In this document: positions 7,635 through 54,778 of the stretch, in pieces | Layout of the letters: each line of letters starts with the position of its first letter | Position numbering within the stretch: position 1 is the first letter of the stretch | Assembly: GCA_902625895.1 (NCBI GenBank) | Contig: CACODD010000004.1 | Location: 1 to 55,232 of the forward strand | DNA length: 55,232 nucleotides | Reading direction: 5' to 3' | From: an uncultured Alphaproteobacteria bacterium | GTDB taxonomy: Bacteria; Pseudomonadota; Alphaproteobacteria; Methylaequorales; Methylaequoraceae | Notes under the pieces: model-generated | Database searches by the model: none | What the model was told of the DNA's origin: nothing | Seen by the model: only the letters and a program-made list of their open reading frames with translations | Position numbers and translations under genes: made by a program

Positions 7635-8915
7635 ATGTATCATACAATTGTTATTGGTGGAGGATGCTTAGGCGCTGCAGCCGCTATTTCTCTCCAAAGA
7701 AAACTGAATAAACTCGGCAAAGGTGATAAAGTTTGCTTAGTAGAAAAAGCCGTTCTATGCGCAGCCGAGTCCTCTAGACATTCAGGTATTGTTAGGTCAG
7801 CAAATGCAGATCCTGATGCATCTATTATGGCATCCATGAGTTCTAAAATGTGGAAAAAACTCTCTTCGGTCTGGGGACTAGATATGGAGATAGATGAATT
7901 TGGTGCTATTTGGATAGCAAAGAAAAATTCAGACGGAGAAAACCCCGCATGGTCTGAACTATCCGACCGAATGAGCAAAATTCAATTAGTCTTCGAAGAA
8001 ATTGATACAAATTCAGCCACTCTAAAATGCGGTGAAACTTTACTTACAGACGAAAATGAATCGTATTTTTACGAACCAGCAGCATTTCAGTTAGATCCGA
8101 GCATTCTTCGGTCAACTCTTTACGATGCAATAGATGAGAATGGTGTCGTCTTAATGGAAAAAACTGAGGTTGATACGATTTTAACCAAAGGTAAAGAAAT
8201 AATAGGCATCACAACTAATAATGGAAAACTGGACGCTAAAAATTTTGTTAATGCAACTGGAGCCTGGAGCTCACAATTATTTTCAAAGATAGGGTTAAAA
8301 ATACCAGTCACAATTGAACCTGTTTCAGTTGTAAATTGGATGGAAAGCCCAAAACAGATTAGATACGAATATCCAATAGTAGCAGACTATACTAACCTTT
8401 GTTATTTCAGATCATGGAGAGGGAATAAAATGCATGCACACCAACCAAGGAAGAGATCTGTATATGAAATTGCTAAAAATTTTTTAAACGATCTTACATC
8501 CGTAAATGGTGGTGAATACCTTAATGAACCAATGAATCAGTCTCTTGCATATAACCAAATAAAAAATTATGAAGATATTTCAAAAAAAAGATTCTCGAAT
8601 ATCGATAAAACAGTATACGCTTCCGGTTACAGATCATTCTTCGATATTACACCAGACTTAAGGTTTATTTTAGGTAAAGACAGTAAATTCAATAATCTCT
8701 TCCATAATTTGGGATCAGGCCAAGCCATGAAGTATTGCCCAGTTTTAGGAGAAAGCATTGCAGAAGAAATTCTTAACGAATCAGATGTCACTGGAAAATT
8801 TGACTATAAAAAATTTAACATCAACAGATTCAGTGATGATTATATGAAGGACTTCTGGAACCTCGTTCAGGGAGAGGAAAACACACTCCATCGACAAGGT
8901 AAAAATACACTTTAA
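7635..8915 (+). CDS. FAD-dependent oxidoreductase, DAO/sarcosine-oxidase-beta family
   Basis: IVIGGGCLG Rossmann motif, ESSRHSGIVR, VNATGAWS and DITPDLRFILG. Confidence 0.85.
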   Translation: MYHTIVIGGGCLGAAAAISLQRKLNKLGKGDKVCLVEKAVLCAAESSRHSGIVRSANADPDASIMASMSSKMWKKLSSVWGLDMEIDEFGAIWIAKKNSDGENPAWSELSDRMSKIQLVFEEIDTNSATLKCGETLLTDENESYFYEPAAFQLDPSILRSTLYDAIDENGVVLMEKTEVDTILTKGKEIIGITTNNGKLDAKNFVNATGAWSSQLFSKIGLKIPVTIEPVSVVNWMESPKQIRYEYPIVADYTNLCYFRSWRGNKMHAHQPRKRSVYEIAKNFLNDLTSVNGGEYLNEPMNQSLAYNQIKNYEDISKKRFSNIDKTVYASGYRSFFDITPDLRFILGKDSKFNNLFHNLGSGQAMKYCPVLGESIAEEILNESDVTGKFDYKKFNINRFSDDYMKDFWNLVQGEENTLHRQGKNTL

Positions 8916-9310
8916 TCATCTTCGTTTGATAGAGAAGTAACAACATTTAAATTTCTCCAAAAATCTTCACTTTTTAAGTTTATATCATTCAATCTCATTA
9001 GCAAACTCCTCACAATTGCTCGAACCACAGGGTCTGCTTCCTTAAGTTTTTGTTTTAAATTTTTTTCATCTATTGGATACAAAATACAGTTTGAATCTGC
9101 TTCTGCTGTTACTGATCTAGATTCGTCTAATGAAGGTCCTCTTTCTCCAAAAATTTCTCCTTCTCCAATTTTTCCAAGTAAAAGACCACCAGGACTATAA
9201 ATATTAACACGTCCAGAATGAACATAATAAGCAAAATGGGCTGTATCACCTTTAGTGTATATTTTTTTTCCTTTACTAAATTTGAGTTGATTGATTCCTA
9301 TTTTTTTCAT
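8912..9310 (-). CDS. Stand-alone cyclic-nucleotide-binding domain protein
   Basis: KFSKGKKIYTKGD, YYVHSGRV, GEIFGE...RSVTAEA phosphate-binding cassette and a C-helix; no HTH domain. Confidence 0.88.
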   Translation of the reverse strand: MKKIGINQLKFSKGKKIYTKGDTAHFAYYVHSGRVNIYSPGGLLLGKIGEGEIFGERGPSLDESRSVTAEADSNCILYPIDEKNLKQKLKEADPVVRAIVRSLLMRLNDINLKSEDFWRNLNVVTSLSNEDD

Positions 9311-9316
9311 CCCGAC

Positions 9317-10675
9317 TTACTCCACTCTAAATAATCTTTTATTATCTAAATATCTTTTAGAAAAATCAACATTGGATTTAACTAACCTTCCAAAAAAATT
9401 TCTTTTTTCAAAGGTAAAATCAGACGCTTTTTCAGAATGTAACTTTAAATTATTAATATGCAGTTCATTGAAAAGAATTTTCTCTAACTTCTCAAAGATA
9501 AGAGATTCTTTATCTGTAGGAAAATAAATCTTATCCCTCACTAAAAAAACTGGAATCTTAATGCCAGTAATTTCTGAAACTAACTTAAAGAAAATTTTAG
9601 AAACAAGAAAATTCCAGCCAATATCTTTTCCTTTATACAAAAATTTTTGAAGTTTTTGATTATTCATTATGTGATTTTTTATTGCTTCATCTATTTCATT
9701 TGTAGTGAAATTTTGTAATGAAAATTTCTTTTTTTCTCTGAATACAGAATTCAAAAAGCTTGTGGATGTTTTGGACCGAAATCCCTTCATTATTAAATAA
9801 CATAATTGATCATAACCCAATACTTTGGAGAAAGACTTTTGTTGAATAGAAATATTGGAATTTGAAATCAAACTTAAATAATTGGCAAAATAATTTGTCA
9901 AGTCTAAATAGCTTGTTTTCTTATTATTTATTGTTAGTTTATTTTTAATATTCAAAAACAAGTGCAAATCGATCTTATTCCACCAGCAACCTCCAATTAA
10001 TCCTTCGTCTAACTTACCAACCTCTTTTTTATAAAAAATCGAAGAAAACGGAGAAATGGTAATTTTTTTATTGTCACCTCTTACTAAAATCTTTCCTTCA
10101 AAGCTTGGAATATCAAAAAGAGTTTTTGAAATAATTTTATTATAATTTTCTAGAACAACTCTTATCTCTTGGGTGTCATAAGAATCTTTATATTCATAAA
10201 GTTTTCCTTTATTATAAATTAAAAGATATTCTTTTTTTCTATGATTTACTCCTTGCGTGGAGAGTAATTTGATTTTTTCAAATTGATTTATTAATTTTTT
10301 TGAAGATTTAATTCGAGTCAATCTACTTTTTTTTGTTCTAGTGTCATAAAAACCCGCATGAAAATTTATAAGGTTATTTTTAACCAAAAAATTAATAACT
10401 TTTATTAAATAAGAAGATATATTGTTGGGATTATATCTAGATTTTGAGTTATAACCTCTCTTTGACATTGATACTGTAAGAAATTGTTTATCAGACTCAA
10501 TCCAGCAATAGTAAAGCTCAAGCATTAGAATTTTTAAGTGTTTCTTAAATAGAGAATTTTGATCTTCTTTGCAAAGCTCAGAAACACAATCATCAATAAT
10601 TTCTGAACTGATGTTTCTTTGAAAATCTATAGGTCTACTAAAATCAAAATCTAATTGATCAGTTTTGCTTTTCAT
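9317..10675 (-). CDS. Hypothetical protein, probable degenerate PolA/T7-type polymerase-fold family member
   Basis: Intact 452-aa ORF. Family assignment rests on recalled motifs (SRPID, LELYYCW, SRYN, GGCWWN, TSYLDL, PVFLVRDK); see findings. Confidence 0.6.
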   Translation of the reverse strand: MKSKTDQLDFDFSRPIDFQRNISSEIIDDCVSELCKEDQNSLFKKHLKILMLELYYCWIESDKQFLTVSMSKRGYNSKSRYNPNNISSYLIKVINFLVKNNLINFHAGFYDTRTKKSRLTRIKSSKKLINQFEKIKLLSTQGVNHRKKEYLLIYNKGKLYEYKDSYDTQEIRVVLENYNKIISKTLFDIPSFEGKILVRGDNKKITISPFSSIFYKKEVGKLDEGLIGGCWWNKIDLHLFLNIKNKLTINNKKTSYLDLTNYFANYLSLISNSNISIQQKSFSKVLGYDQLCYLIMKGFRSKTSTSFLNSVFREKKKFSLQNFTTNEIDEAIKNHIMNNQKLQKFLYKGKDIGWNFLVSKIFFKLVSEITGIKIPVFLVRDKIYFPTDKESLIFEKLEKILFNELHINNLKLHSEKASDFTFEKRNFFGRLVKSNVDFSKRYLDNKRLFRVE

Positions 10676-10693
10676 AATAGATTCTTATGAATT

Positions 10694-10981
10694 ATGTATT
10701 TTGTAGATTTCTTTTTATACATCATTTTTCAAATTTTGCAGATTTATAAATATGCTGTAATAATTTATGTAATTTTAAGCATGTTAATTTCATTTAATAT
10801 TATTAACACTAACAATAGAATAATTTCAATTGTAATGGATTTTTTATTTAAGTTGATCGAACCGCTGCTTAGGGTTATAAGGAATGTTATCCCAAACTTC
10901 GGTGCAATTGATATTTCACCTGTAATATTAATAATAATAATTGAAGCTTTTCAATATATTATGACAAAATACGGATTCTAA
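10694..10981 (+). CDS. yggT: YggT family membrane protein
   Basis: EPLLRVIRNVIPNFGAIDISP signature. Confidence 0.92.
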   Translation: MYFVDFFLYIIFQILQIYKYAVIIYVILSMLISFNIINTNNRIISIVMDFLFKLIEPLLRVIRNVIPNFGAIDISPVILIIIIEAFQYIMTKYGF

Positions 10982-10982
10982 T

Positions 10983-11879
10983 ATGAGCAATAAAATAATA
11001 GACGGAAAACTTATATCTTCTGAAATAAGAGAAAAGGTTAAAAAATTTGGAGATCAACTTAAAAATAAAACAGGAAAAGTCCCAGGGCTGGCCGTTGTAC
11101 TTGTTGGCGAAAATCCTGCTAGCCGGGTTTATGTTAAGAATAAAATTGAAAAAACAATTGAAGTTGGTTTCAATTCAATTGAGCATAAATTGAATGAGAA
11201 AGTATCTGAGAGCGAATTAATTGATTTAGTTGATAAATTAAATAATGATGAAAATGTACAAGGAATTCTTGTACAATTACCTCTACCAAAACATGTAAAC
11301 TCAGATAAAATTTTAGATAGAATAAAGCCTGAAAAGGATGTTGACGGTTTTCATGCCAATAACGTTGGAAAACTCTGGTCAGGTCTTAATTCACTTGTTC
11401 CTTGCACCCCTTTGGGTTGTAGTATTCTTATAAAAAAGGTCTCAAAAGATCTATCAGGCAAACATGCCGTTATAATTGGAAGGTCAAATATAGTTGGGAA
11501 ACCAATGGCAGCACTACTTCTTGGAATGAACGCGACTGTAACAATATGTCATTCAAGAACAAAAGACTTGGAATCTGTCTGTAAGGATGCTGATATTGTT
11601 GTGGCTGCTGTTGGCATTCCAGAAATGGTTAAGTCAAATTGGATCAAGGAAGGTTCAATAATAATCGATGTCGGTATTAACAGAATTGAAAGAGATACAA
11701 AAAAAGTTCTAGTTGGAGATGTTGATTATGACGATTGTCTAACAAAATGTTCTCTCATCACTCCTGTTCCTGGTGGAGTAGGGCCTATGACAATAGCCTG
11801 TCTCCTTCTAAACACACTTCTTGCATCCTACCCTCAGTTTAACCAACCAATTCCTGATTTATCGTCTATGCTTGAGTAG
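10983..11879 (+). CDS. folD: Methylenetetrahydrofolate dehydrogenase/cyclohydrolase
   Basis: [22 protein letters not shown] and [12 protein letters not shown] motifs. Confidence 0.98.
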
Positions 11880-13061
11880 TTTAAGCCTGAGTGCGTTTAA
11901 TTTTATGAACCCCTCAGCATCTTTTTGGTTATAAATTGAGTCTTCTTCAAAAGTTGCCATTTCACTGCTATAAAGACTATTTTTTGACTTTCTTCCGAGT
12001 ATAATAATATTTCCTTTATAAATTTTTAACTTTACAGTACCCTCGACATTTGATTGCGATTTATCAATCAATGACTGTAACATTTCTCTTTCTGGAGTAA
12101 ACCAGAAACCATTGTAGATTAATTCTGCATATTTAGGCATTAATTCATCTTTCAAATGAGCTGAAGATTTGTCAAGTGTAATACTTTCTATTGCTCTTCT
12201 TGAAGCAAGAAGAATTTCTCCTCCAGGAGTTTCGTATACACCTCTTGATTTCATGCCTACAAATCTGTTTTCAACAATATCAATTCTTCCAATTCCATTT
12301 TCACCACCTATTTTATTTAATCTAGCGAGAAGTTTAGCAGGTGATAGTTTTTCTCCATTAATAGAAATTAAATCTCCCTTGAAAAACTCTAAATCAATTA
12401 TTGTTGGGGTGTTAGGAGCATCCTCACAAGAAATCGTTCTTGTGTACATTGACTCGTTTGGCTGCGCCCAAGGATCCTCCAAAATTTTTCCTTCATACGA
12501 TGTATGCAGGAGATTTGCATCCATTGAATAGGGAGGCTCATAACTATTTTCAGGTGATACAGAAATTTGTGATTTTTTGGCATATTCTATTAAATCCTTT
12601 CTAGACTTTAAATTCCATTCTCTCCAAGGAGCAATAACTTTAATTTTTGGGTTTAATGCATAATATCCCAACTCAAATCTAATTTGATCATTACCCTTTC
12701 CCGTTGAACCGTGTGCAACGAAGTCTGCGCCTACTTTTTTCGCAATTTCAAGTTGTTTTTTTGCTATTAATGGTCTTGCTATAGATGTCCCTAGAAGATA
12801 GTAACCTTCATAAACTGCATTAGCCCTGAACATTGGAAATACATAATCTTTAACGAAGTCTTCTTTTAAGTCATCAATAAAAATTTCTTTTACTCCAAGT
12901 TTTAAAGCCTTATCCTTGGCTTCTTTGACCTCACTTCCTTGTCCAATATCAGCAGTGAAAGTTACAACTTCTAAATTTCTTTCATTTTGAAGCCATTTTA
13001 AAATTACAGATGTATCAAGTCCTCCAGAAAAGGCTAAAACAACTTTTTTTTTCTTATTCAT
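11859..13061 (-). CDS. argG: Argininosuccinate synthase
   Basis: [20 protein letters not shown] and [12 protein letters not shown] motifs; ATG 13061 preferred. Confidence 0.98.
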
Positions 13062-13069
13062 AAAGTTTA

Positions 13070-13594
13070 CTATTTCTTTTGGCAAGCTTCATTTATTTGC
13101 TGGTATGCTTTGCTGAAACCCATTAAAGAATAGGTATCTGTTGTTATCGTTCCTCTTGTTGAAGTTCCAACAACTTTCATTTTCATAGATGACTTTAAGA
13201 ATTTAATAATTTTTTCATCGTCAGGAGGACTAAAGCTCCATGCTCTTGATCCTGACGTAAATAATTGAAATTTTGCATCGCCAACAGTGATTTCTGGGTT
13301 ACTATCTGCTTTATAATTGTATCCAGCCACTATACTGAACTCATTCCATTTATTCTGACCAGGCAAATGAGTAATAACAGCAAAAATCTCACCTCTTCTT
13401 TTATAGTTACCTTCTGCTTTTTTTGGTTTTGAAACTGCGAGGCAGGCTAAGTTTTTTCCTTCACCTTCTGCATAAGCACTCCAATCATTAAATTTTCCTA
13501 GTTCCTTGGATTTTATTTCAGTAAATACAAAAATTACAAAAATGGTTAGCAAAAATTTATAAGTTATTTTTAAATTCATTATTTTTATTGACAT
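13070..13594 (-). CDS. Invasion-associated locus B (IalB)-family periplasmic protein
   Basis: Signal peptide, LGKFNDW, Cys pair and [23 protein letters not shown]-terminus typical of the alphaproteobacterial family. Confidence 0.75.
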
Positions 13595-13635
13595 ATTAGC
13601 TAATAAATTGCAAGAGACTATAATTCAAATAAGAT

Positions 13636-14499
13636 ATGTACCCAATTTTTTTACTTGTTTCGTCCTGTTTTCTCTTTTCAGTCCTCGCTGCTTTGATAAA
13701 ATTTGGCTCTCAGTTCATTCATCCCATCGAACAAGCATTCTTTAGGAATTTAATTAGTATTTTATTACTTATTCCCTTTGTTATTCAAACTAAGAAAATA
13801 ATTAATAAAAGTAGTAATATCAAACTTTTAGTTTTAAGAGGAATCTTTGGTGGTATCACAATGATTCTTCTTTTTTGGTCTTATTCACTTATTCCCCTTT
13901 CACAAGCCATGGCGGTTAGCTTTAGCACTCCTCTTTTTATTTATCTAGGGGCGATATTATTTTTTAAAGAAAAAACTTCTAGACTAAATAATTTTATAAT
14001 TCTTCTTGGATTTATCTTAACTATCATAATAATTCGACCAGACTTAGAAATAAAATTTGGAGTTATTCTAGCGCTTATTGCTGCAATAACTCACGCTATA
14101 GCAGGTTTGTTGGTAAAAAAAATATCAAAAAATGAATCTGTAATCACTCTAATGTTTAGTATGGTGTTATTGATGACTCCTATCGCTGGTATTCCTACTA
14201 TGATGGTTTGGTCAACACCAAATATTCAACAATTATACTTATTGGTTATTATTTCAGTTATAGCAACACTAGGGAATTTTTGTTGGACAAAAGCTCTAAG
14301 TATAACAAAGTTGACAAATTTGATGTCTTTTGATTTTTCTAAATTGTTATTTACTACTATATTGGGATTTATTTTTTTTGATGAGAAAATTGATCTTATA
14401 ACAATAATCTGTGGATCTGGTTTAATTTTATGTTCAAATATTAAGTTTATTAGTGTTAGAAGAAATGAGAAAAATAAAACCATTTTACCAGATAATTAG
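13636..14499 (+). CDS. DMT/EamA family transporter
   Basis: About 10 TM segments; FFRN, LRG, LSQAMAVSFSTPLF and IIIRP patterns. Confidence 0.9.
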   Translation: MYPIFLLVSSCFLFSVLAALIKFGSQFIHPIEQAFFRNLISILLLIPFVIQTKKIINKSSNIKLLVLRGIFGGITMILLFWSYSLIPLSQAMAVSFSTPLFIYLGAILFFKEKTSRLNNFIILLGFILTIIIIRPDLEIKFGVILALIAAITHAIAGLLVKKISKNESVITLMFSMVLLMTPIAGIPTMMVWSTPNIQQLYLLVIISVIATLGNFCWTKALSITKLTNLMSFDFSKLLFTTILGFIFFDEKIDLITIICGSGLILCSNIKFISVRRNEKNKTILPDN

Positions 14500-15304
14500 T
14501 TGTTTTTTTTTTGCAATTCTTGGCGTCCAAATAAAAAAGTTACTTTTAATAGATAACATAGAAAACCTTGTCTTCTACAGATCATTTTTTGGGATGTTAT
14601 TATTATTGATAACCATTTTATTGACTCAAAAAAGGGTATTTTTTTTGATAAACACAGGAAATATTAAAATTCACATTTTTAGATGTCTTTGCGGAGTATC
14701 AGCCATGTATTTCGGATATCAATCTTTGATGTTCCTTACATTAGCTCAAGCCAGTACAATTGGATTTACAAAAGTTTTTTTTACCTGTTTAATTTCATTT
14801 TTTATATTCGCAGAAAAATTAAACTTAAAACTGATCGTTTTAATATTTTTAGGATTTCTGGGAATTATTTTGATTACAAGACCGGGACAAATTCAGAGTG
14901 ACACTGGTGTATACATGGCTTTATTCTCTGCGATATGTGTATCAGGAGGTATTATTTCGATATCTTATTTGAGTAAAAGGGAAGAAACTTTAACTATACT
15001 TTTTTATCACTCTCTTTTTTCTACAATTATTTTTTTTTCAATTTTTTATAGTAAAATTTCTTTTAAATCTTTTGATTTAATTGGGAGCTATTTTTTAATA
15101 ACTTTAACAGCATTACTTGGACAATATTTTAACACGGAATCCTATAAAAACTTTGAAACAAAAAATGTTGTTATTCTTAGTTACTCTAGAATAATTTTTT
15201 CTACAATATTTGGGTTTATTTTCTTTGACGAAAAAATAAATTTTATGAGTTTAGTCGGAATATTAATCGTCTGTTTAACAAGTTTCTTAGTTCAAAAAAA
15301 ATAG
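14465..15304 (+). CDS. DMT/EamA family transporter (tandem paralog)
   Basis: Same architecture as the upstream gene (FYRS, LAQASTIGFTK, LITRPG); ATG 14465 preferred. Confidence 0.88.
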   Translation: MRKIKPFYQIISCFFFAILGVQIKKLLLIDNIENLVFYRSFFGMLLLLITILLTQKRVFFLINTGNIKIHIFRCLCGVSAMYFGYQSLMFLTLAQASTIGFTKVFFTCLISFFIFAEKLNLKLIVLIFLGFLGIILITRPGQIQSDTGVYMALFSAICVSGGIISISYLSKREETLTILFYHSLFSTIIFFSIFYSKISFKSFDLIGSYFLITLTALLGQYFNTESYKNFETKNVVILSYSRIIFSTIFGFIFFDEKINFMSLVGILIVCLTSFLVQKK

Positions 15305-32789: not shown

Positions 32790-32818
32790 ATACTTTATTT
32801 TACTATTATAAGAAAAAA
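32732..32818. repeat. Direct repeat copy 1 (hemC 5' end plus upstream region)
   Basis: Aligns with 33078-33168; 50/57 identity counted by hand in the core 32732-32788. Confidence 0.85.
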
Positions 32819-32904
32819 TTTGGGAAAAAAATAAATTGATCTACCTAACAAATAAATTTTAATAACAATAGATCAAATTCAAAAACTTACATGGTAAAAA
32901 AAAT

Positions 32905-32922
32905 AAAGTGTATATACACTTT
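32905..32922. promoter_or_regulatory. Perfect 18-bp palindrome, candidate operator
   Basis: AAAGTGTATATACACTTT equals its own reverse complement. Confidence 0.55.
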
Positions 32923-33077
32923 TATATTAAATATTATGTTAGGTGTCAATTTTTGAAACTGATCTTTTTTGATATTCATTTTGTCAAAAGCTAGTAATGT
33001 TTGGTTATGTTTTGGGATATGTTAAAGTATTGTAGAAATTTAAAACTAAGCATATTTTTACTTCAAAAAAATATTAA

Positions 33078-33168
33078 TTTTTGTTAAAAGACTTTATCGT
33101 GATCCAATAATTATATTTTCAGAATTAATATGCACACGCAGGATTTTATTTTAATATTATAAAAAAAA
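33078..33168 (-). pseudogene. Decayed duplicate of the hemC 5' end (repeat copy 2)
   Basis: Minus strand reads (GTG)HINSENIIIGSR*SLLTK versus HemC MHNNFDNIIVGSRESLLAK. Confidence 0.8.
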
Positions 33169-33196
33169 AATAATAAGAACTTTATAAAATTTTAAA

Positions 33197-34228
33197 ATGA
33201 AGGTATTGGGGATAGAAACTAGTTGTGACGAAACTTCTGCTGCTATTGTTGAAAAAAAAAATGGAAGAAAATTTGGAAAGGTGCTTTCTGAAGTCACAGT
33301 TTCTCAAATTAACAAGCATAAAAAATTTGGAGGTGTAGTTCCCGAGCTGGCATCCAGAGAACATAGTAATAATATAGACTTTATAGTACAAAAAACTTTA
33401 AAAAATTCAAATGTAAATCTATCAAAAATTGATGCATTTGCCGCAACTACAGGGCCAGGACTTCTAGGAGGTCTTTTAGTAGGAACCAATTATGCTAAAG
33501 CACTGGCAATTTCTTGTAATAAACCATTTTTATCAATAAACCATCTACAAGGTCATGTTTTAGTTCCAAGAATGAGCAGAGTTATAGATTTTCCTTTTAT
33601 CTGTTTACTTGTATCGGGTGGACACTGTCAAATTCTTCTTGCGAAAGATTATAATAAGTTTAAGGTCATAGGTGAAACGCTTGATGATGCTGTTGGTGAG
33701 GCATACGACAAAATTGCTAAGATATTGGGTTACGACTATCCTGGTGGTCCAATTATAGAAAAACTAGCACTTGAGTGTAATGGGAAATATCATTTTAATC
33801 TACCAAAACCTCTCATTAAAGACAAATCAAAGAATCTTTCATTTTCAGGATTGAAAACAGCTGTAAGAAGAATAATTGAAAAAGGTATTAGTGACGAACA
33901 AAAATTTGATTTAGCAAATGAATTTCAAACTGTAATTTGTGAATGTTTGATTAGCAAAGTTGAACTCGCAATAAATAGCTTAAAATATAGAAACAAGGTA
34001 AATAGTTTTATCCTAACTGGGGGAGTTGCCTCAAATTTATTCATCAGGAGAAAGTTCAAATTACTGTGTAAAAAGAAAGGTTTGTCTTTTATTGCACCAG
34101 AAAAAAAATTATGTACTGATAATGCTAGTATGATAGCTTGGGCTGGGCATGAGATTTTAAATAGAAGAAAAAAAAGCAGTAATTTAAGTTTGTCTCCTAA
34201 ACCTAGGTGGAGGTTGGATTCTTTATGA
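33197..34228 (+). CDS. tsaD: tRNA threonylcarbamoyltransferase TsaD
   Basis: LGIETSCDET, GGVVPELASREH, NHLQGH, LLVSGGH and TDNASMIA motifs. Confidence 0.98.
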   Translation: MKVLGIETSCDETSAAIVEKKNGRKFGKVLSEVTVSQINKHKKFGGVVPELASREHSNNIDFIVQKTLKNSNVNLSKIDAFAATTGPGLLGGLLVGTNYAKALAISCNKPFLSINHLQGHVLVPRMSRVIDFPFICLLVSGGHCQILLAKDYNKFKVIGETLDDAVGEAYDKIAKILGYDYPGGPIIEKLALECNGKYHFNLPKPLIKDKSKNLSFSGLKTAVRRIIEKGISDEQKFDLANEFQTVICECLISKVELAINSLKYRNKVNSFILTGGVASNLFIRRKFKLLCKKKGLSFIAPEKKLCTDNASMIAWAGHEILNRRKKSSNLSLSPKPRWRLDSL

Positions 34229-47422: not shown

Positions 47423-50400
47423 TTAGTTACACAGTCCATTTCTTAAAACACAAGGAGCAACTGTTATTGATTGATCTGGAGTAGAAATACTGATTTTCTC
47501 TGCTACAGCTGGCACACTTCTGTGTGAGGTTTTTGTAGGCAAAAGAATCAAGTTTTTACCTGAACGTCCTTTATTTAAAATTTCTCTTACTCTTTGAGTA
47601 AAGGTTAATTTATGTTTTAAGGTCAACAAGAAACTTCCACCAGAAAATGTATAGTTTGAAGCTGATCCGGTTCCATCGCTAAAAGATAAAGTGCCCAAAG
47701 AAATATTTTGAGTGCTTCCTGGAATATTACTTTGAATACTACCTTGTCCAATTAAAGTTAACGACTCATTATTAGCTGCTGTGATAAATAATTCTTCAGC
47801 TAGAACGATCAAAGATGGGTTTTCCACAGCAACACGAGAGCCAAAGAGACTAACTGGTCTTTTTGTTACATTCATAGAAGCCCCTGTTATTGTATAATTT
47901 GGATGAGCTGAAGTTAATGATCCAATATTAACAGACTTTGATCCAACCCCAGGAGACCCAATTGTACCTGAACCAGAAATAGTTATTGTGTCGGAACCAA
48001 CAGTATTGGTGAAAGAATCAAATATGTTACCATTTACAATATTTGTCCCATCGTAAAATCTACTACCAGAGGCTGATGTTGTACGTGCTGTTACGTCAAT
48101 TGAATGGTTGCCGCCATCTAAAGTATAATTCGAGGCAGATCCACTTCCGTTTCCTAATGCAAGAGTTCCAATACTTGTAATGTTTTTTCCTACTCCTACA
48201 TTTTTATTTTGCATTTGACCATTTCCACTCAGTGTTAATGTCTGTCCCCCTACAGTATTAGAGATTCCATTAGATTGTAGACCTGAAGCAGGTGCATCTA
48301 AAGTTCCGTCATAAATTTTTTCGATACTTAGATCAACGGGACGTTTTGTAATACTTAAAGAAATTGTTCCCATGGAGTAGTTAGTAGCACTTCCATTTGC
48401 GCTAACAAGATTCAGTGTGTTCTGAGTAACTGATTTATTACTTCCAACGTTAGCATCGACTACACTGCCTTGACCGGATAGTGTGATGATTTCAGAACCC
48501 ACTCCGGTTGTTATAGCTAGGTCAGAACCATTCACAGTTGTTGTATTATCATACACTCTAGAGCCTGTAACATTCAACTGACGCGAGTTTATTGCGAATG
48601 TTCCACTTGATAATGAATAATTCGACGCTAACCCCGTTCCATCCTGCAATTGAAGTGTTCCAAGTACAATTGTTTTTCCAGTCCCAGAAATTGCGGTAGA
48701 GACACTTCCTGAACCTGTGATTCCAAGGGTCTCTCCAGCAGAGGTATTATTAAAAATTGAAATATCTGAACCATTTACAGTTGTTGTTCCATCATAAAAT
48801 CTTGAGCCACTAATTGTTATTGGTCTTTTTGTTACACTCATGGTTTGTGTTCCACCTGACAATGTATAATTAGCAGCTAAACCTCCATTAGTTCCATTAC
48901 TAATTGTAATGCCAGTTACATTTGTTAACGTTTTTAAATCTCCAACGTTAGCATTTCCTAAGTCACCATTTCCTGATAATCCAATTGTTTCCGAACCAAC
49001 CAAATTATTGATTGTTGTTAAGTCAGATGCGGCGGCAGTAGCAGAAGAATCGTAGATTCTTGAACCAGTTAAATCTAATGGACGTTTCGTAATATCTAAA
49101 GTTGCAGAGGTTAAATTATAATTACTTGAAGCTGCAGTTCCACTTGCTAATGCTATGCTTCCAAGCGATATTGACTGCCCAGACGCTACATTTTTAGAAG
49201 CAACACTTCCAGATCCTGTTAGATTTAAATTTTCCCCACTTACCAAATTGCTGAAAGTTGAGGTGAAGTTTGAAGTATTTGCATCTGTTGTTCCATCATA
49301 GTGTCTAGTACCCACAAAATTTACATCTCTCACATTAATATCAAAAGACCCTGATGATAATTCATAGTTGGAAGCTAACCCGGAATTATCTGTTAGTGCT
49401 AGTGAACCCAATGATATAGTCTTATTTGTTCCAACTGCAGCAGAATCAACAGTCCCAGATCCATTTAGATTCAGAGTTTCACCACCGGCTCTATTACTGA
49501 TAGTTGAAATAGATGAGTTTTGCACAGTGGTTGATCCATCATAGGTTTTTGAACCTGAAATTGTAATAGGTCTTTTAGTAACATTAACTGTGTGTGTTCC
49601 TCCAGATAATGTGTAGTTTGATGCTAACCCACCATTTGACCCATTGCCCAACGACAGTCCACTAACATTTGTAAGTGCTATCGAATCTGCAACATTTTTA
49701 TTACCTATAACTCCATTTCCTGAAAGGATAATTGTTTCAGAACCAACCAAATTAGTCATGGTTGATAAATCAGATGCTGCCACCGAAGTTGTTGAGTCAT
49801 ATACTCGTGAACCTGATAAACTTAATGGACGAGCTGTTACAGTAAGTGTACTCGAAGTTAAGTTATAATTACTAGCAGCACCTGAACCATCAAGGAGACT
49901 TAGGTTTGTGACTGTTACGGCTTTTCCTGAACCAACATTCTTATTTGAAACTGTTCCTGTTCCTGTTTGTGATAGAATTTCGGAACCTACTAGATTACTG
50001 TAAGTGAATGTTGTTGAAACACTAGCACCGTCCAAAATATTTGATCCATCATATTCTCTACTTGCGACAAGAGTTATAGGTCTTTGAGTGACATTCATCA
50101 AATGAGTGCCTCCATCAAGAGTATAGTTACTTGCTGACCCTGAGTTATCTGATAAAGAAAGTGTATTTTTAGCTACATTTTTTGAATTACCAACTGCAGC
50201 TGACAACAAAGTTCCAGAACCAGATAAATTTAAAGTTTCAGAACCAACTAAGTTTGATAAAGATAAATCTGAAGCATTTGCAGTTATTGATCCATCGTAA
50301 ATTCTTGTGCCTGAAGAATTCAGTATCCTCGGAGTAATTTCAAATGTTGTGGTGAAATTACTCAAGGTATAGTTCCCTGCACCAGGGCCAGTAAGAGCAA

Positions 50401-53400
50401 GGGATCCTGCAGTCACAGTTTTATTAGCGCCAACATTTTCATCTGCAACTGTGCCGGCTCCCGTCAAACTTACAGTTTCTCCACTAACTAAATTGGTTAA
50501 ATTAAGATCAGAACTATTAACAGTTTTTGTGCCATCATATTGCCTGCTTCCAGAAACATTCACAGATAATTGAGATATATCTAATGTGTGAGATCCCCCT
50601 GTTAATGTATAATTTGAAGACTTTCCTCCAGAACCATCCGAAATAGATAGACTTCCAAGGGTAATTGCTTTATTCATTTCAACTGTTGCATTTGGTAAAG
50701 TACCTGAACCAGATAGTGTTAAACTTTCGCCACTTACTATGTTGCTTATACTTAAATCTGCGCTTGAAGCATTGTTAGTCCCGTCAAAGGCTCTTACCCC
50801 ACTTAAACCAATCACACGTTCTGTAACATTTACGGTGGCAGAGGATAATGTGTAGTTTGTACCAACACCTGAACTATTGTCTATTGTTAGGCCTGATGTA
50901 TTTACTGTTTTTCCAGTTCCAGCGTCAGCAGAAGATATTGTACCAGTTCCTGACAGTGATAATGTATCCGATCCAGCCAGATTCGAAAAGCTTGTAAGGT
51001 TGCTTGACGCTACATTTGTTGTCCCGTCATAGGTTTTTGTTCCTGAAACTGTTGTTGATCTTGGAACAATTGTCATAGTTAGCGTTCCATTTGTTAAAGT
51101 ATAGTTAGATGCTATTCCAGAACCATCTGATATTGCCAATGTGTTTGTATTCACAATAGTCCGGCTACCAGCGGCTGGAGAATCCAATACGCCGCTTCCT
51201 GTTAACCCTAGTGTCTCTCCAGAAACAATATTTGTAAAACTTAGATCTGATCCAGAAGCTGTCCTTGTTGAATCATAAGCTCTTGAACCAGATAAATTTA
51301 ATGGACGTTGCGTAATATTAGAGCTTCCTGAAGCTATCGAATAGTTACTTGCTTGTCCAGAATTGTCAACTAATGAAAGCCCCGAAGTCGACAAAGTTTT
51401 AGCATTTCCTACATTTGCTGACGAAACAGTTCCAGATCCAGCAACAGATAATGTTTCAGATCCTACTATATTGGTGAATGTTGTAATTTGACTGCCATGA
51501 ATCGTTGTATTACCGTCGTAAATTTTTGAACCAACAAGTGTTAATGGTCTTTGAGTTATATCGAAATTTGCACTCGAAATGCTATAGTTACTGGCACTTC
51601 CGGTTCCATTCGCGAGAGCTAAAGTTCCAAGTGTAACTGTTTTGCCTGCACCAACATTCGTAGAACTTACAGAACCACTTCCTGAAACAGATAGCGTTTC
51701 AGAACCAACTAAATTTGAAAAAGTTGTCAAGTTGGAACCATCTACTGTTGTATTTCCATCATAAACCTTACTTCCATCTACCACAACTGGACGTTGTGTA
51801 ACATTAATTTCAAGAGTTCCATTTAAAGTATAATTAGCAGCGGCACCGCTGTTATCAGATAAAGTGAAGTTTACATCTGTTACACTCTTGTTATCACCAA
51901 CGGCACTAGAAGTAATAGTTCCGGATCCAGACAAGTTAAGTGTTTCAGAACCTATGAGTCCTGTTAATGATAAATTTGATGATGATACTGATGTGTTTCC
52001 GTCATAAACTTTTGATCCAACAACTCCTATAGATTTTTTGCTAATTGTTATACTGTGGGATCCCCCTAAGAGTGTATAGTTTGAAATTATTCCTCCGTTA
52101 CTCCCATCTGAAAGCAATAGCGCAGTCGTATTAATTGACGCTGATCCATAAGTTGAAGCATTTGGTAAAGAGGTCGAAACCGAGCCAGATTTATTTAAAG
52201 TCTCTGACCCTATAAGGCCGTTCAAACTAATATTTCCAGAAGAGACTGTAGTTGATCCGTCATAGGCTCTTGTTCCAGAAATACTTAATATTTTATTATT
52301 GATTGTAAATGTCCCTGTACTTAAAGAATAGTTAGAGGCATTTGAAGTGTTGTCCGCCAAACTCAGGCCAGTTGTATTTATTGTTTTTCCAGCGCCTACA
52401 TTCTTATCAGTTACTGAACCTGTTCCTGCAATTGATAAAGACTCTCCTGAAACCTCACCAATTAACGTTAAGTCAGAGCTTGCAACATTGGTTGTGCCAT
52501 CGTATTGTCTTGAACCCGAGAGTGTTATTGGCTTTGTGGTAATATCAAATGATCCGGAATCCAGAGTGTAATTAGAGGCCAAGCCGATAGTTCCGTTGGT
52601 TCCGTCAGATATTCCCAATGTATTAAGAGTGATAGATTTATTAGTTCCAACCGATGGTAGCGAAACACTTCCCTCTCCACTAATTGTAAGTGTTTCACCG
52701 CCGGCCGTGTTAACTGTATCAATTTGGCTGGCTAAAACCGTTCCCGTTCCATCATAAACTTTCTCTCCACTTATACTTAGATTGCGACGGGTTATAGCAA
52801 AGCTTGTTGTTCCAATTGTATAGTTAGATGCAGAATGTGAACCGTCGGAAAGGGATAGACCAGATATGTTTATTGTTTTACCAGATCCGACATTTTTATC
52901 AGTTACTGAACCTGTTCCTGTGATTGAAATTGATTCACCTGTAACTTCTCCAGTAACATCTAAATCTGAGCTACTAACTGTGGTAGTGGCATCATAAATT
53001 TTTTGACCTCCCACACTTACCCACTTTTGACTTATGTCAAATGTCCCTATTGTCAAATTATAGTTGCTCGCTAATCCACCGCCAGAACCGTCGGCTATTG
53101 CAATAGATCCTAACGTTATAGATTGGTTGTTTTGTACATTAGCCGATGAAACTGTTCCGCTTCCCGAAAATGCAAGTGTTTCTCCACTTGCAGTATCGTT
53201 GGTGACCAAATCAGATGAGCTTACCGTTGTAGTGCCATCATAAACTCGAGACCCTGAAAATGTTATGTCCTTTTTTGTTATATTGAACGTATGTGTTCCT
53301 CCATCTAATTTATAATTAGACGATAAGCCAGGCGTCCCTCCTGATCCGTTTCCTAAGGTCAAACCAGATACATCTAATGTTTTTCCATTTGCGACATTTT

Positions 53401-54778
53401 TGTCACTTATAGTTCCATTACCAGTTAATGTTAAATTTTCTCCTCCTTGAATGTTATTCAATGATAAGTCAGCCGGAAGGGCGTTTGTTGAACCATCGTA
53501 TTGTCGCGTACCCGTGATTGAAATTACAGCTTTATTTATAGTCAGTAAATGCGTTCCACCAGCCAATGTGTAATTAGAGGCTATTCCTCCATTAGACCCG
53601 TCAGCTAGACTTAGTGTATCTACACCTATTGTTTTATTGGCACCAACATTCTCGTCTGATACCGATCCATTACCAGAAAGTGCTAAAGTCTCACTTCCAA
53701 CTAAATTTGACAGAGTTATTATTCCGGATGAAACTGTTTTTAAAGTATTATAATCCCTGCTTGCAGACATGTTTAATACTCTTTCGATAATATTAAAGGT
53801 TTGTGTTCCTCCACTAAATGTGTAGTTAGATGCTAAACCTGCTGTTCCAGTTTGTCCATTCTCAAGGGTCAGACCTGATGTATTTACTGTTTTACCATTT
53901 CCAATATTTTTACTTACAACACTTCCCAATCCTGAGGTTGTTAAGTCTTCTCCTCCTTGTAATCCTGAAAGTGAAAATTCAGAATTCCTGACGTCTTGAG
54001 TTCCGTCGTATTGGCGTGATCCTGTTAGTGATATAGGAGCCTTATTCACAGTTAACTGATGCGTTCCTCCACTAAGAGTATAGTTAGCCGCTAAGCCTCC
54101 ATTCGATCCATCCGCTAATGCGAGTGTTCCTACCGATACTGTTTTGTTAGATCCAACATTCTTACTCGCAATCGTTCCGGTTCCACTTAAGTTAAGTGTT
54201 TCTGATCCCACTAAGTTAGCATGCGTTGATAAGTCTGATGCTACCGCATTTGTTGTGGCATCATATAAACGGGTGCCGCTTACACTCACTGCACGTCTAT
54301 TTACCGTAAAGTTATGCGTACCACCCGTAAGCGTATAGTTAGAAGCTGTTCCTCCACTCCCGTCAGCGATACTAATCCCAGATAAGTTTGTTATCGTATA
54401 ACTACCCGCATTCGCTGAACTAATCGTGGCTGTTCCAGAATGATTCAACGCTTCACCTGATACAAGGTTGCTTAATGTTATCGCTCCAGCTAAAGCATCC
54501 GTGTTCGCATCATACGTCTTCGATCCTGATGAGTTCAGTACTCGTTGTGCAATGTTAATCACCGTCGAGTTTAAACTATAATTTGACGCAAGACCTGTTC
54601 CGTCAGCCAATGCCAGTGTTCCATTACTACTCATCGCTATTCCATTGGCAACATTTGCACTCGCTGCCGTTCCCGAACCTGTCATGGTTAAGGTCTCTCC
54701 ACCTTGCAATGCATCAAAGCTACTCAAGGTTGATCCCGCTGCTGTCGTCGTTCCGTCATATTGTCTGGCGGCACGCAT
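47423..54778 (-). CDS. Giant YDG-repeat surface adhesin (FHA/TpsA-like), C-terminal part only
   Basis: About 29 units of roughly 80-87 aa ([RK]xYDG...GxETLxLSGxG...NVG...SNY). It begins mid-repeat with no signal peptide, so ATG 54778 is fortuitous and the genuine frame ends at about 54766. Confidence 0.88.
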   Translation of the reverse strand: MRAARQYDGTTTAAGSTLSSFDALQGGETLTMTGSGTAASANVANGIAMSSNGTLALADGTGLASNYSLNSTVINIAQRVLNSSGSKTYDANTDALAGAITLSNLVSGEALNHSGTATISSANAGSYTITNLSGISIADGSGGTASNYTLTGGTHNFTVNRRAVSVSGTRLYDATTNAVASDLSTHANLVGSETLNLSGTGTIASKNVGSNKTVSVGTLALADGSNGGLAANYTLSGGTHQLTVNKAPISLTGSRQYDGTQDVRNSEFSLSGLQGGEDLTTSGLGSVVSKNIGNGKTVNTSGLTLENGQTGTAGLASNYTFSGGTQTFNIIERVLNMSASRDYNTLKTVSSGIITLSNLVGSETLALSGNGSVSDENVGANKTIGVDTLSLADGSNGGIASNYTLAGGTHLLTINKAVISITGTRQYDGSTNALPADLSLNNIQGGENLTLTGNGTISDKNVANGKTLDVSGLTLGNGSGGTPGLSSNYKLDGGTHTFNITKKDITFSGSRVYDGTTTVSSSDLVTNDTASGETLAFSGSGTVSSANVQNNQSITLGSIAIADGSGGGLASNYNLTIGTFDISQKWVSVGGQKIYDATTTVSSSDLDVTGEVTGESISITGTGSVTDKNVGSGKTINISGLSLSDGSHSASNYTIGTTSFAITRRNLSISGEKVYDGTGTVLASQIDTVNTAGGETLTISGEGSVSLPSVGTNKSITLNTLGISDGTNGTIGLASNYTLDSGSFDITTKPITLSGSRQYDGTTNVASSDLTLIGEVSGESLSIAGTGSVTDKNVGAGKTINTTGLSLADNTSNASNYSLSTGTFTINNKILSISGTRAYDGSTTVSSGNISLNGLIGSETLNKSGSVSTSLPNASTYGSASINTTALLLSDGSNGGIISNYTLLGGSHSITISKKSIGVVGSKVYDGNTSVSSSNLSLTGLIGSETLNLSGSGTITSSAVGDNKSVTDVNFTLSDNSGAAANYTLNGTLEINVTQRPVVVDGSKVYDGNTTVDGSNLTTFSNLVGSETLSVSGSGSVSSTNVGAGKTVTLGTLALANGTGSASNYSISSANFDITQRPLTLVGSKIYDGNTTIHGSQITTFTNIVGSETLSVAGSGTVSSANVGNAKTLSTSGLSLVDNSGQASNYSIASGSSNITQRPLNLSGSRAYDSTRTASGSDLSFTNIVSGETLGLTGSGVLDSPAAGSRTIVNTNTLAISDGSGIASNYTLTNGTLTMTIVPRSTTVSGTKTYDGTTNVASSNLTSFSNLAGSDTLSLSGTGTISSADAGTGKTVNTSGLTIDNSSGVGTNYTLSSATVNVTERVIGLSGVRAFDGTNNASSADLSISNIVSGESLTLSGSGTLPNATVEMNKAITLGSLSISDGSGGKSSNYTLTGGSHTLDISQLSVNVSGSRQYDGTKTVNSSDLNLTNLVSGETVSLTGAGTVADENVGANKTVTAGSLALTGPGAGNYTLSNFTTTFEITPRILNSSGTRIYDGSITANASDLSLSNLVGSETLNLSGSGTLLSAAVGNSKNVAKNTLSLSDNSGSASNYTLDGGTHLMNVTQRPITLVASREYDGSNILDGASVSTTFTYSNLVGSEILSQTGTGTVSNKNVGSGKAVTVTNLSLLDGSGAASNYNLTSSTLTVTARPLSLSGSRVYDSTTSVAASDLSTMTNLVGSETIILSGNGVIGNKNVADSIALTNVSGLSLGNGSNGGLASNYTLSGGTHTVNVTKRPITISGSKTYDGSTTVQNSSISTISNRAGGETLNLNGSGTVDSAAVGTNKTISLGSLALTDNSGLASNYELSSGSFDINVRDVNFVGTRHYDGTTDANTSNFTSTFSNLVSGENLNLTGSGSVASKNVASGQSISLGSIALASGTAASSNYNLTSATLDITKRPLDLTGSRIYDSSATAAASDLTTINNLVGSETIGLSGNGDLGNANVGDLKTLTNVTGITISNGTNGGLAANYTLSGGTQTMSVTKRPITISGSRFYDGTTTVNGSDISIFNNTSAGETLGITGSGSVSTAISGTGKTIVLGTLQLQDGTGLASNYSLSSGTFAINSRQLNVTGSRVYDNTTTVNGSDLAITTGVGSEIITLSGQGSVVDANVGSNKSVTQNTLNLVSANGSATNYSMGTISLSITKRPVDLSIEKIYDGTLDAPASGLQSNGISNTVGGQTLTLSGNGQMQNKNVGVGKNITSIGTLALGNGSGSASNYTLDGGNHSIDVTARTTSASGSRFYDGTNIVNGNIFDSFTNTVGSDTITISGSGTIGSPGVGSKSVNIGSLTSAHPNYTITGASMNVTKRPVSLFGSRVAVENPSLIVLAEELFITAANNESLTLIGQGSIQSNIPGSTQNISLGTLSFSDGTGSASNYTFSGGSFLLTLKHKLTFTQRVREILNKGRSGKNLILLPTKTSHRSVPAVAEKISISTPDQSITVAPCVLRNGLCN

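Follow-up and report, generated by a model that had tools for sequence, protein, structure and literature searches.

We examined a 55,232-nucleotide stretch of DNA from an uncultured alphaproteobacterium of the order Methylaequorales (GenBank assembly GCA_902625895.1, contig CACODD010000004.1, positions 1 to 55,232; hereafter the window), focusing on an open reading frame (ORF) at positions 9317..10675 of the minus strand. The ORF listing and the translation of the window show an intact frame of 452 codons that begins with ATG and ends in a stop codon at 9317–9319. An initial annotation had reported this frame and had proposed that its product is a domesticated, catalytically eroded protein with a polymerase fold. 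The frame is present as described, and the strings quoted for that proposal all occur in the translation (GLIGGCWWN at residues 225–233, TSYLDL at 254–259 and PVFLVRDK at 375–382, with SMSKRGY at 69, SRYNPN at 79 and SRLTRI at 117 in the N-terminal region). The evidence presented here indicates that the product is probably a domesticated, catalytically dead derivative of the transposon-virus polymerases (TV-Pols), encoded directly ahead of a stand-alone cyclic-nucleotide (cNMP)-binding protein.

Upstream of the ORF lie yggT, folD and argG; downstream lie the cNMP-binding gene (132 residues, 8912..9310, minus strand), a gene for a DAO-type oxidoreductase and pabB/pabC. A Pfam scan of 45 window ORFs revealed housekeeping genes, including ccm genes, pabB/pabC, folD, argG, hemC/hemD, tsaD and purH, and no integrase, transposase or phage protein, which agrees with the core-gene setting that had been claimed. 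No tRNA gene was found in the window, which is AT-rich (24–44% G+C per kilobase). The start codons of the ORF and yggT are divergent and 18 bp apart (10676–10693; 18–27 bp in orthologous loci), a gap so small that the promoter of each gene would lie inside the coding sequence of the other. A promoter scan was uninformative (16 sites versus 13.6 expected).

A word-seeded search recovered 101 relatives of the ORF protein, 95% to 34% identical to it and nearly all 450–474 residues long. The only names attached to them are 'hypothetical protein', from a Pelagibacteraceae metagenome-assembled genome (MAG) and an Alphaproteobacteria MAG, and the annotations of the relatives' clusters, ESM Atlas included, give 'hypothetical protein' or no name. 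Thirty-five of these relatives make up our clade alignment, in which 35 of the 37 invariant columns fall within residues 1–250. The ORF protein matches no Pfam or NCBIfam family at E ≤ 10. Its sole match in the sequence libraries is PHROG 4756, a family of unknown function (E 8.7e-6, residues 42–193), which 20 of the 35 clade members match as well; in Pfam, no family is common to more than three of the 35. Searches of the PDB by sequence, whether with the single protein, the clade profile or a profile of the wider family described below, gave no match. The family-A DNA polymerase model PF00476 is not matched by the ORF protein either; the only match in the genome is a 930-residue PolA encoded on another contig.

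An AlphaFold2 model of the ORF protein, built on the clade alignment, reached a predicted local distance difference test score (pLDDT) of 81.6 and a predicted template-modelling score (pTM) of 0.84. We compared this model with 48,161 PDB representatives using VIA-align, without reliance on Foldseek. The first 14 rows were all family-A DNA polymerases or single-subunit RNA polymerases (RNAPs), with Z 9.5–7.1 over 226–255 aligned residues in model positions 139–421; the top rows include the apicoplast polymerase, Aquifex and Klenow Pol I, Pol nu, Pol theta, T7 DNA polymerase, DpoZ, T7 RNAP and the yeast and human mitochondrial RNAPs. Foldseek against the PDB returned the same polymerases throughout, weakly (best E 5.8e-3; none at or below 1e-3), so that both structural searches yield the similarity to a polymerase palm that the initial annotation had predicted. 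Among predicted viral structures (BFVD), full-length matches were phage proteins of 400–450 residues (E 6.6e-17 to 4e-12), one of them annotated as a DNA polymerase; the Zamilon virophage replication protein was a weak match (rank 33, E 0.04). Residues 20–138 resemble winged-helix chains (MarR, Z-beta, JetB-like and others) at Z 6.0–6.4, a level that is commonly reached. The models establish, or come close to establishing, that the protein is predicted to have a polymerase-like fold preceded by a winged-helix N-terminal domain.

The ORF protein can be divided into several segments, all encoded on the minus strand. The N-terminal peptide (residues 1–22; 10610..10675), of the form DQLDFxFSRPxDxQ, is by alignment and entropy the best-conserved stretch of the clade, and its S13, R14 and D17 are common to the wider family. 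The winged-helix-like domain (residues 23–138; 10262..10609), delimited by structural matches and invariant columns, contains an invariant SMSKRGY...SRYNPN loop and an SRLTRI wing. Structural matches and the alignment place the beginning of the polymerase-like body, on its thumb/palm side, in residues 139–214 (10034..10261), where E149, Y162, D164, Y178, N179 and D188 are common to the clade and the wider family. The remnants of the polymerase motifs follow and are described below. The isoelectric point (pI) is 9.3–9.9 in all 35 clade members, compared with 4.8–9.7 in the wider family and 5.8–8.9 in neighbouring proteins.

Searching the clade profile against 1.84 billion cluster representatives gave 1392 proteins at E ≤ 1e-3 and 676 at E ≤ 1e-10. 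Matches outside the clade are 440–700 residues long and align from about position 10 to 420, and most of the full-length ones carry GGR[FY][YF]GGWWQ followed by HDS about 160 residues on. The relatives with GRxYGGWWQ, ExD, R..K and HDS motifs that the initial annotation had described do exist, both among the 1392 representatives and in an alignment of 105 full-length proteins of this wider family. An hhalign comparison of the clade with 52 wider-family proteins gave a probability of 100 (E 5.7e-60) over 452 columns. The model of a wider-family member (pLDDT 88) matches family-A polymerases at Z 12.2–6.8 and, in residues 47–170, winged helices at Z 5–6.3. Pfam assigned no family to 28 wider-family proteins, and NCBIfam gave nothing near its cut-offs for ten.

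The genomic setting of the wider family is that of mobile elements. In GTDB species genomes, 381 of 414 candidate stretches encode a relative. The best 80 loci, examined with flanks of up to 6 kb, come mostly from Rhodobacterales, SAR116, Rhodospirillales and other marine alphaproteobacteria; a tyrosine recombinase is encoded at 38 of the 80 [these fall into two blastp clusters, of 22 and 18 loci, that share two loci; three representatives of each were confirmed as PF00589] and a serine resolvase at five (two representatives confirmed). A tblastn search with a wider-family member against phages returned 238 phage records, all annotated as hypothetical, and Microcystis phage Ma-LMM01 was not among these.

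The main text of Iyer, Abhiman and Aravind (2008; PMC2579912) describes the TV-Pols as polymerases of 400–600 residues, built from a thumb, a beta-hairpin whose Arg is invariant, an RRM-like palm that holds two Asp residues, and fingers that carry RxxxK along with a conserved Asp. Some members, found in alphaproteobacteria and phages, also have an N-terminal globular domain, and their genes are linked to those of lambda-type integrases, resolvases or transposases; a D5-like helicase is also among the linkage features (PMC2579912). In the 105-protein alignment, the wider family shows every layout feature listed in that text. It agrees with the published account in size, in its hosts (the paper's Rhodobacterales, Paracoccus and other alphaproteobacteria) and in its neighbours (lambda-type integrase and resolvase), and the ORF protein aligns to it end to end. 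One difference concerns the N-terminal domain, predicted to be all-helical in the 2008 text and modelled here as a winged helix with beta strands. Judged against that text, the wider family fits the TV-Pol description. The initial annotation had called the family uncharacterised and mobile-element-associated; the association holds, but the family is not wholly uncharacterised.

Several of the active relatives stand alone on tiny contigs, some of them labelled high-coverage (L065; L062, L080 and L103, the last three of 1.6 kb). On a Ruegeria alba contig of 2989 bases (L065), the lone gene lies between terminal inverted repeats of 209 nucleotides (2–210 and 2780–2988) that are 95% complementary, which suggests a small repeated element with a TV-Pol-like protein as its only gene. 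The 63-nucleotide perfect inverted ends of L066 could be an assembly artefact.

To map the motifs we aligned the 35 clade members with the 105 wider-family representatives (numbering according to the ORF protein). The beta-hairpin remnant, equivalent to T/DxxGR (residues 215–250; 9926..10033), was placed by alignment and entropy and has GLIGGCWWN in place of GGRFYGGWWQ. Its three arginines are gone: R215 (R in 103/105 wider-family proteins) is Y, F or C in the clade, the Arg of the G224-G225-R226 hairpin (103/105) is L in the ORF protein and L, I, K or other residues elsewhere in the clade, and R244 (105/105) is K in 19, S in five and A in three of the 35. In the motif A remnant (TSYLDL, residues 254–259; 9899..9916), E256 (105/105) is replaced by Y in 20 members including the ORF protein, by F in ten and by H in five, and D258 (105/105) is D in 23, N in eight and S in four. 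H263 (100/105) has become F or L. In the motif B remnant of the fingers (RxxxK...N, residues 288–300; 9776..9814), R288 (104/105) is Y, I or F, K292 (105/105) is C in 27, N in four and F in three, and N300 (104/105) is R, N or K; the ORF protein has Y, C and R at these positions. D358 of the fingers (97/105) is V, L or C. In the motif C remnant (PVFLVRDK, residues 375–382; 9530..9553), HDS has become RDK: H380 (96/105) is K or R, D381 (101/105) is D in 31, E in three and N in one, and S382 (99/105) is K in 33 of the 35. Motif C of T7 RNAP also reads HDS, as in the active relatives.

The placement of motifs A and C is consistent with the model, in which TSYLDL forms a predicted strand followed by a helix and RDK sits at a predicted beta-hairpin turn, as expected for these motifs. 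A Vibrio-phage homologue retains all the motif residues that the clade replaces. Compared with the far more diverse wider family, the clade has higher entropy only at the hairpin (1.97 vs 1.51) and motif A (1.86 vs 1.67); its entropy is lower in the N-terminal peptide (0.78 vs 2.07) and the winged helix (1.43 vs 2.29). Residues S13, D17, L54, W58, Y75, R80, Y81, N82, G108 and R121, as well as E149, Y162, D164, Y178, N179 and D188 named above, are invariant or nearly so in both groups, and R14 is invariant in the clade and R in 74 of the 105 wider-family proteins. The clade has lost residues for two-metal catalysis and for nucleotide and template binding, among them the hairpin Arg, the Glu of motif A, both basic residues of RxxxK, and the His and Ser that flank the Asp in HDS. 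The initial annotation had stated that both candidate catalytic Asp residues remain and that the nucleotide-binding basic residues appear lost. The second statement applies throughout the clade; the first is accurate for the ORF protein itself, which has both D258 and D381, but the motif-A Asp is eroding among its relatives. Judging from these substitutions, the clade protein would no longer polymerise nucleotides.

The gene is fixed in the order. Among 42 species genomes, all of one family, the ORF has a match in 37, including nine of nine high-quality genomes and all 14 genera; the five genomes that lack a match are 54–80% complete. With only 42 species and a low G+C content, the order might conceivably be a SAR11-like lineage that falls outside Pelagibacterales proper, for example HIMB59/AEGEAN-169. 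The window's own genome carries one copy. Three of the 37 copies have apparent stops or frameshifts: in G038 an assembly error is likely, as argG and the cNMP-binding gene are frameshifted too, in G017 a single TAG stands beside an N, and the G006 copy has one isolated frameshift. Of 401 sampled genomes of the class, four belong to the order; true relatives occur in six of the 397 others. Eleven further weak matches in this sample (E ~1e-5, query residues 222–347) were spurious, and the one inspected is by eye an ABC-F-type ATPase. The gene order argG-folD-yggT-ORF-cNMP gene, followed by the DAO gene or pabB, is identical at 14 of 14 loci from four genera. A true PolA of about 930 residues is encoded elsewhere in all five genomes checked.

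The ratio of nonsynonymous to synonymous substitution rates (dN/dS, calculated by NG86) is 0.05–0.16 over 21 ORF pairs with at least 80% identity; it is 0.03–0.18 for residues 1–235 and 0.06–0.17 for residues 236–452, the half that contains the eroded motifs. The gene is vertically inherited under purifying selection and its distribution is not patchy, which does not match the decaying relic that the initial annotation had set against its proposal. In two trees [FastTree with 18 clade and 70 wider-family sequences; IQ-TREE with 12 and 36], the clade falls to one side of a branch that has support 100, and its stem measures 0.89 changes per site. The trees are unrooted and their direction is not proven; their topology fits a single capture. 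In each of four seawater RNA libraries, from four studies, contigs cover parts of the gene at 90–99% identity.

The cNMP-binding gene starts 6 nucleotides past the ORF stop codon; the final ORF codons contain a GGAG, and nothing resembling a terminator was found between the two genes. It lies directly downstream on the same strand in all 37 ORF-bearing genomes, with 3–20 nucleotides between the ORF stop and its ATG in 13 loci. Its product matches PF00027 only, has PKG, PKA-R, Bd1971 and CRP as PDB relatives, and carries an invariant phosphate-binding cassette, FGE...RS(V/I)TAEA. An orthologue (E ~1e-79) is encoded in all four order genomes of the class sample and in none of the 397 others (best ~1e-16). 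The two genes form a tight two-gene unit. Of the 703 ORFs that neighbour the wider-family genes at the 80 loci, none encodes a cNMP-binding protein, which implies that the two genes were paired at the time of the capture or later. Longer homologues of the cNMP-binding protein were sought but none was found, which is weak evidence. Prediction of a complex between the ORF protein and its neighbour gave a score of 0.00, which says nothing for or against an interaction. An apparent fusion of the two genes in G012 (L116, contig C20, 74000–78500; a 608–614-residue frame) was discarded, since ambiguous bases (X) in the linker could hide a stop; the record is full of such bases, and open-frame lengths taken from records of this kind are untrustworthy.

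We also surveyed cNMP signalling in five genomes of the order, of which four reach a completeness of at least 93%. Each encodes two class III cyclases and five to eight cNMP-binding ORFs, most of which are stand-alone and 123–178 residues long. For the CRP-type helix-turn-helix domains, PF13545 and PF00325 were over the cut-off in none of these five genomes, compared with 14 of 14 and nine of 14 control genomes, respectively. In this order, cyclic nucleotides appear to signal through several sensor domains that stand alone. Outside the window, contig C3 of G000 has at about 9850–14650 a cluster of two stand-alone cNMP-binding ORFs (146 and 162 residues), a class III cyclase of about 795 residues and a cNMP-domain protein of about 575 residues, and the same cluster is present in G027, G016 and G004. 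In the wider family, adenylate/guanylate cyclase-domain proteins are encoded a few kilobases from active TV-Pol-like genes at five to six loci (L054, L055, L058, L060, L089); these come from uncultured alphaproteobacterial single-cell genomes that are probably closely related, and the count is not one of independent cases.

Two other features of the window lie at a distance from the ORF. A giant ORF at 47423–54778 (minus strand, 2451 residues) contains 24 YDG-domain repeats (PF18657, E 8.6e-254) and occupies the only G+C-richer part of the window (38–44% vs ~29%). The cumulative GC skew has its minimum at about 32800–33200, where gene orientation changes from mostly minus to mostly plus around a 400-bp gap between hemC and tsaD; this origin-like signature is about 22 kb from the ORF.

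Comparison with characterised systems places the ORF protein among, and apart from, several of them. Like family-A DNA polymerases and single-subunit RNAPs it has, in the model, a palm, fingers and part of a thumb; unlike family-A polymerases it lacks an exonuclease domain as well as a PF00476 match, its catalytic and nucleotide-binding residues are replaced, and a winged helix precedes the polymerase-like body. Unlike the TV-Pols as the main text of PMC2579912 describes them, the clade lacks the hairpin Arg, RxxxK and the fingers Asp, and one palm Asp is gone in 12 of 35 members; its gene is a vertically inherited, single-copy one without a recombinase or helicase beside it. That main text mentions no inactive or Pelagibacter-like member. 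The primase-polymerase CcPol-MP of SCCmec, assigned to the TV-Pols by those who described it (Bebel et al., 2020; PMC7581432), has polymerase activity and, with a small partner, primes DNA synthesis. It resembles the ORF protein in being a stand-alone minimal family-A polymerase domain of mobile-element origin with a small protein encoded directly downstream (PMC7581432). It differs in that CcPol is catalytically active and has no N-terminal domain, as stated in a related preprint of 2022 (10.1101/2022.12.02.518924), and in that its partner is an OB-fold single-stranded-DNA-binding protein whose gene is followed by that of a helicase, whereas the ORF has a dead site, a neighbour with a cNMP-binding domain and no helicase gene. 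The likeness to CRP/FNR regulators is one of parts: a cNMP-binding domain with an intact cassette and a winged-helix domain are both present but are supplied by two genes, each on its own protein, and the winged helix, which matches neither PF13545 nor PF00325, differs from the CRP type.

We consider it probable that the ORF encodes a domesticated, catalytically dead TV-Pol derivative that is kept as a host gene and likely serves as a DNA-binding regulatory or architectural factor. The parent would have been a TV-Pol-type polymerase of a mobile element, minimal and family-A/T7-RNAP-like with an N-terminal winged helix, captured a single time in the ancestor from which this order of genome-streamlined marine alphaproteobacteria descends, and from then on inherited vertically, in single copy and in a fixed housekeeping neighbourhood. 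The two-metal site and the nucleotide and template contacts would then have been dismantled and polymerisation lost, as the substitutions described above suggest. The whole fold appears to have remained under purifying selection, with the strongest constraint on the N-terminal peptide and winged helix that are common to the active relatives. The protein may bind DNA through the winged helix and a uniformly basic surface, with the inert polymerase body as a scaffold, and would in this way act as a regulatory or architectural factor. More tentatively, it may work jointly with the cNMP-binding protein encoded directly behind it, a cNMP signal being turned into a DNA-binding output. Of what the initial annotation had proposed, the domesticated, eroded polymerase-fold protein is supported by the data, while the new DNA-binding or regulatory role is one that we infer.

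Several observations weigh against this interpretation. Membership of the wider family in the TV-Pols depends on its match to a published description. The DNA-binding role, possibly linked to cNMP, is read from models, and the winged-helix match itself is at a Z of only about 6, a common level; the basic pI may partly reflect an AT-rich genome, although the neighbouring proteins have less basic values. The ORF protein is 42–56% identical where FolD, ArgG and the cNMP-binding protein are 72–90% identical, and it evolves two to three times faster than they do, which is unusual for a core regulator. Asp381 is D or E in 34 of the 35 clade members and Asp258 is D in 23, leaving room for residual metal binding, or for catalysis in some members. 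The RNA data are weak evidence of expression, in that seawater RNA libraries can contain DNA and the uncovered parts of the gene are uninformative. Finally, the ORF-cNMP pair sits inside a block that is syntenic throughout, so that adjacency alone is no proof of joint function.

A more specific version of the preferred reading treats the ORF protein as the DNA-binding half of a split, CRP-like cyclic-nucleotide switch, in which the origin-recognising winged helix and the inert body of a TV-Pol would have been exapted to give the cNMP sensor, whose gene starts 6 nucleotides downstream, its output module. We regard this as possible though doubtful. Another explanation turns on the active relatives, which are common in the marine phages counted above and in integrase-linked elements of co-occurring marine alphaproteobacteria: a dead copy might act as a dominant-negative guard, occupying the origin or end sequences of TV-Pol phages and elements, or their partner proteins, and so blocking replication. 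That the best-conserved part of the protein is the domain common with the active relatives, and that the protein evolves faster than its neighbours, would suit such a role. The low dN/dS shows no sign of an arms race, however, no PADLOC defence model was matched among 11 proteins, the gene belongs to a stable block of housekeeping genes, as opposed to a variable island, and active relatives are rare outside the order in the class sample (6/397), which together make a guard unlikely.

The protein could also still be an enzyme, an altered nucleotidyltransferase or primase whose active site has been rebuilt around Asp381 and the newly fixed D236, N250, K297 and K382. Conserved polar residues specific to the clade do lie near the old site (D236 in 34/35 members, N250 in 35/35, K297 in 34/35 and K382 in 33/35), residue 381 is acidic in all members but one, and the C-terminal half is under purifying selection. 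Yet 12 of the 35 have N or S in place of the motif-A carboxylate. Hydrophobic or uncharged residues, with no one consistent replacement, stand where the wider family has the hairpin Arg, RxxxK and the other acidic residue of motif A, and variability is raised exactly at the hairpin and motif A; we judge continued catalysis very unlikely. The lack of Pfam and NCBIfam matches, the eroded motifs and the stops or frameshifts in three of 37 copies might suggest that an old integration is decaying here, or that the ORF was mis-called. Either is hardly credible given open frames of 450–476 residues across sequences down to 34% identity, the low dN/dS and a confident fold model, and of the three broken copies only that of G006 has a lone frameshift.

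Transposases and integrases are well known to have been domesticated, and the fold and parent family described here are likewise already known, since TV-Pols are known. What is new is a catalytically dead TV-Pol derivative as a fixed core gene, coupled to a clade-specific cNMP sensor. We found no description of an inactive, chromosomally fixed TV-Pol in the literature searched, which included the main text of a 2026 SAR11 'unknomics' paper. Streamlined genomes discard almost everything dispensable, and the retention in such genomes of a 452-residue pseudo-enzyme at a dN/dS of about 0.1 therefore argues for a real function. If the link to the cNMP-binding partner is true, it would explain how cyclic nucleotides are read out in an organism in which a CRP-type regulator was not found. 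For the family at large, about 1400 unannotated protein clusters and PHROG 4756 are now linked to the TV-Pol concept, and the N-terminal domain of the family that these clusters represent is predicted to be winged-helix-like. The clade offers a natural 'catalysis-off' variant, and with it a way to separate DNA recognition from polymerase function in these elements.

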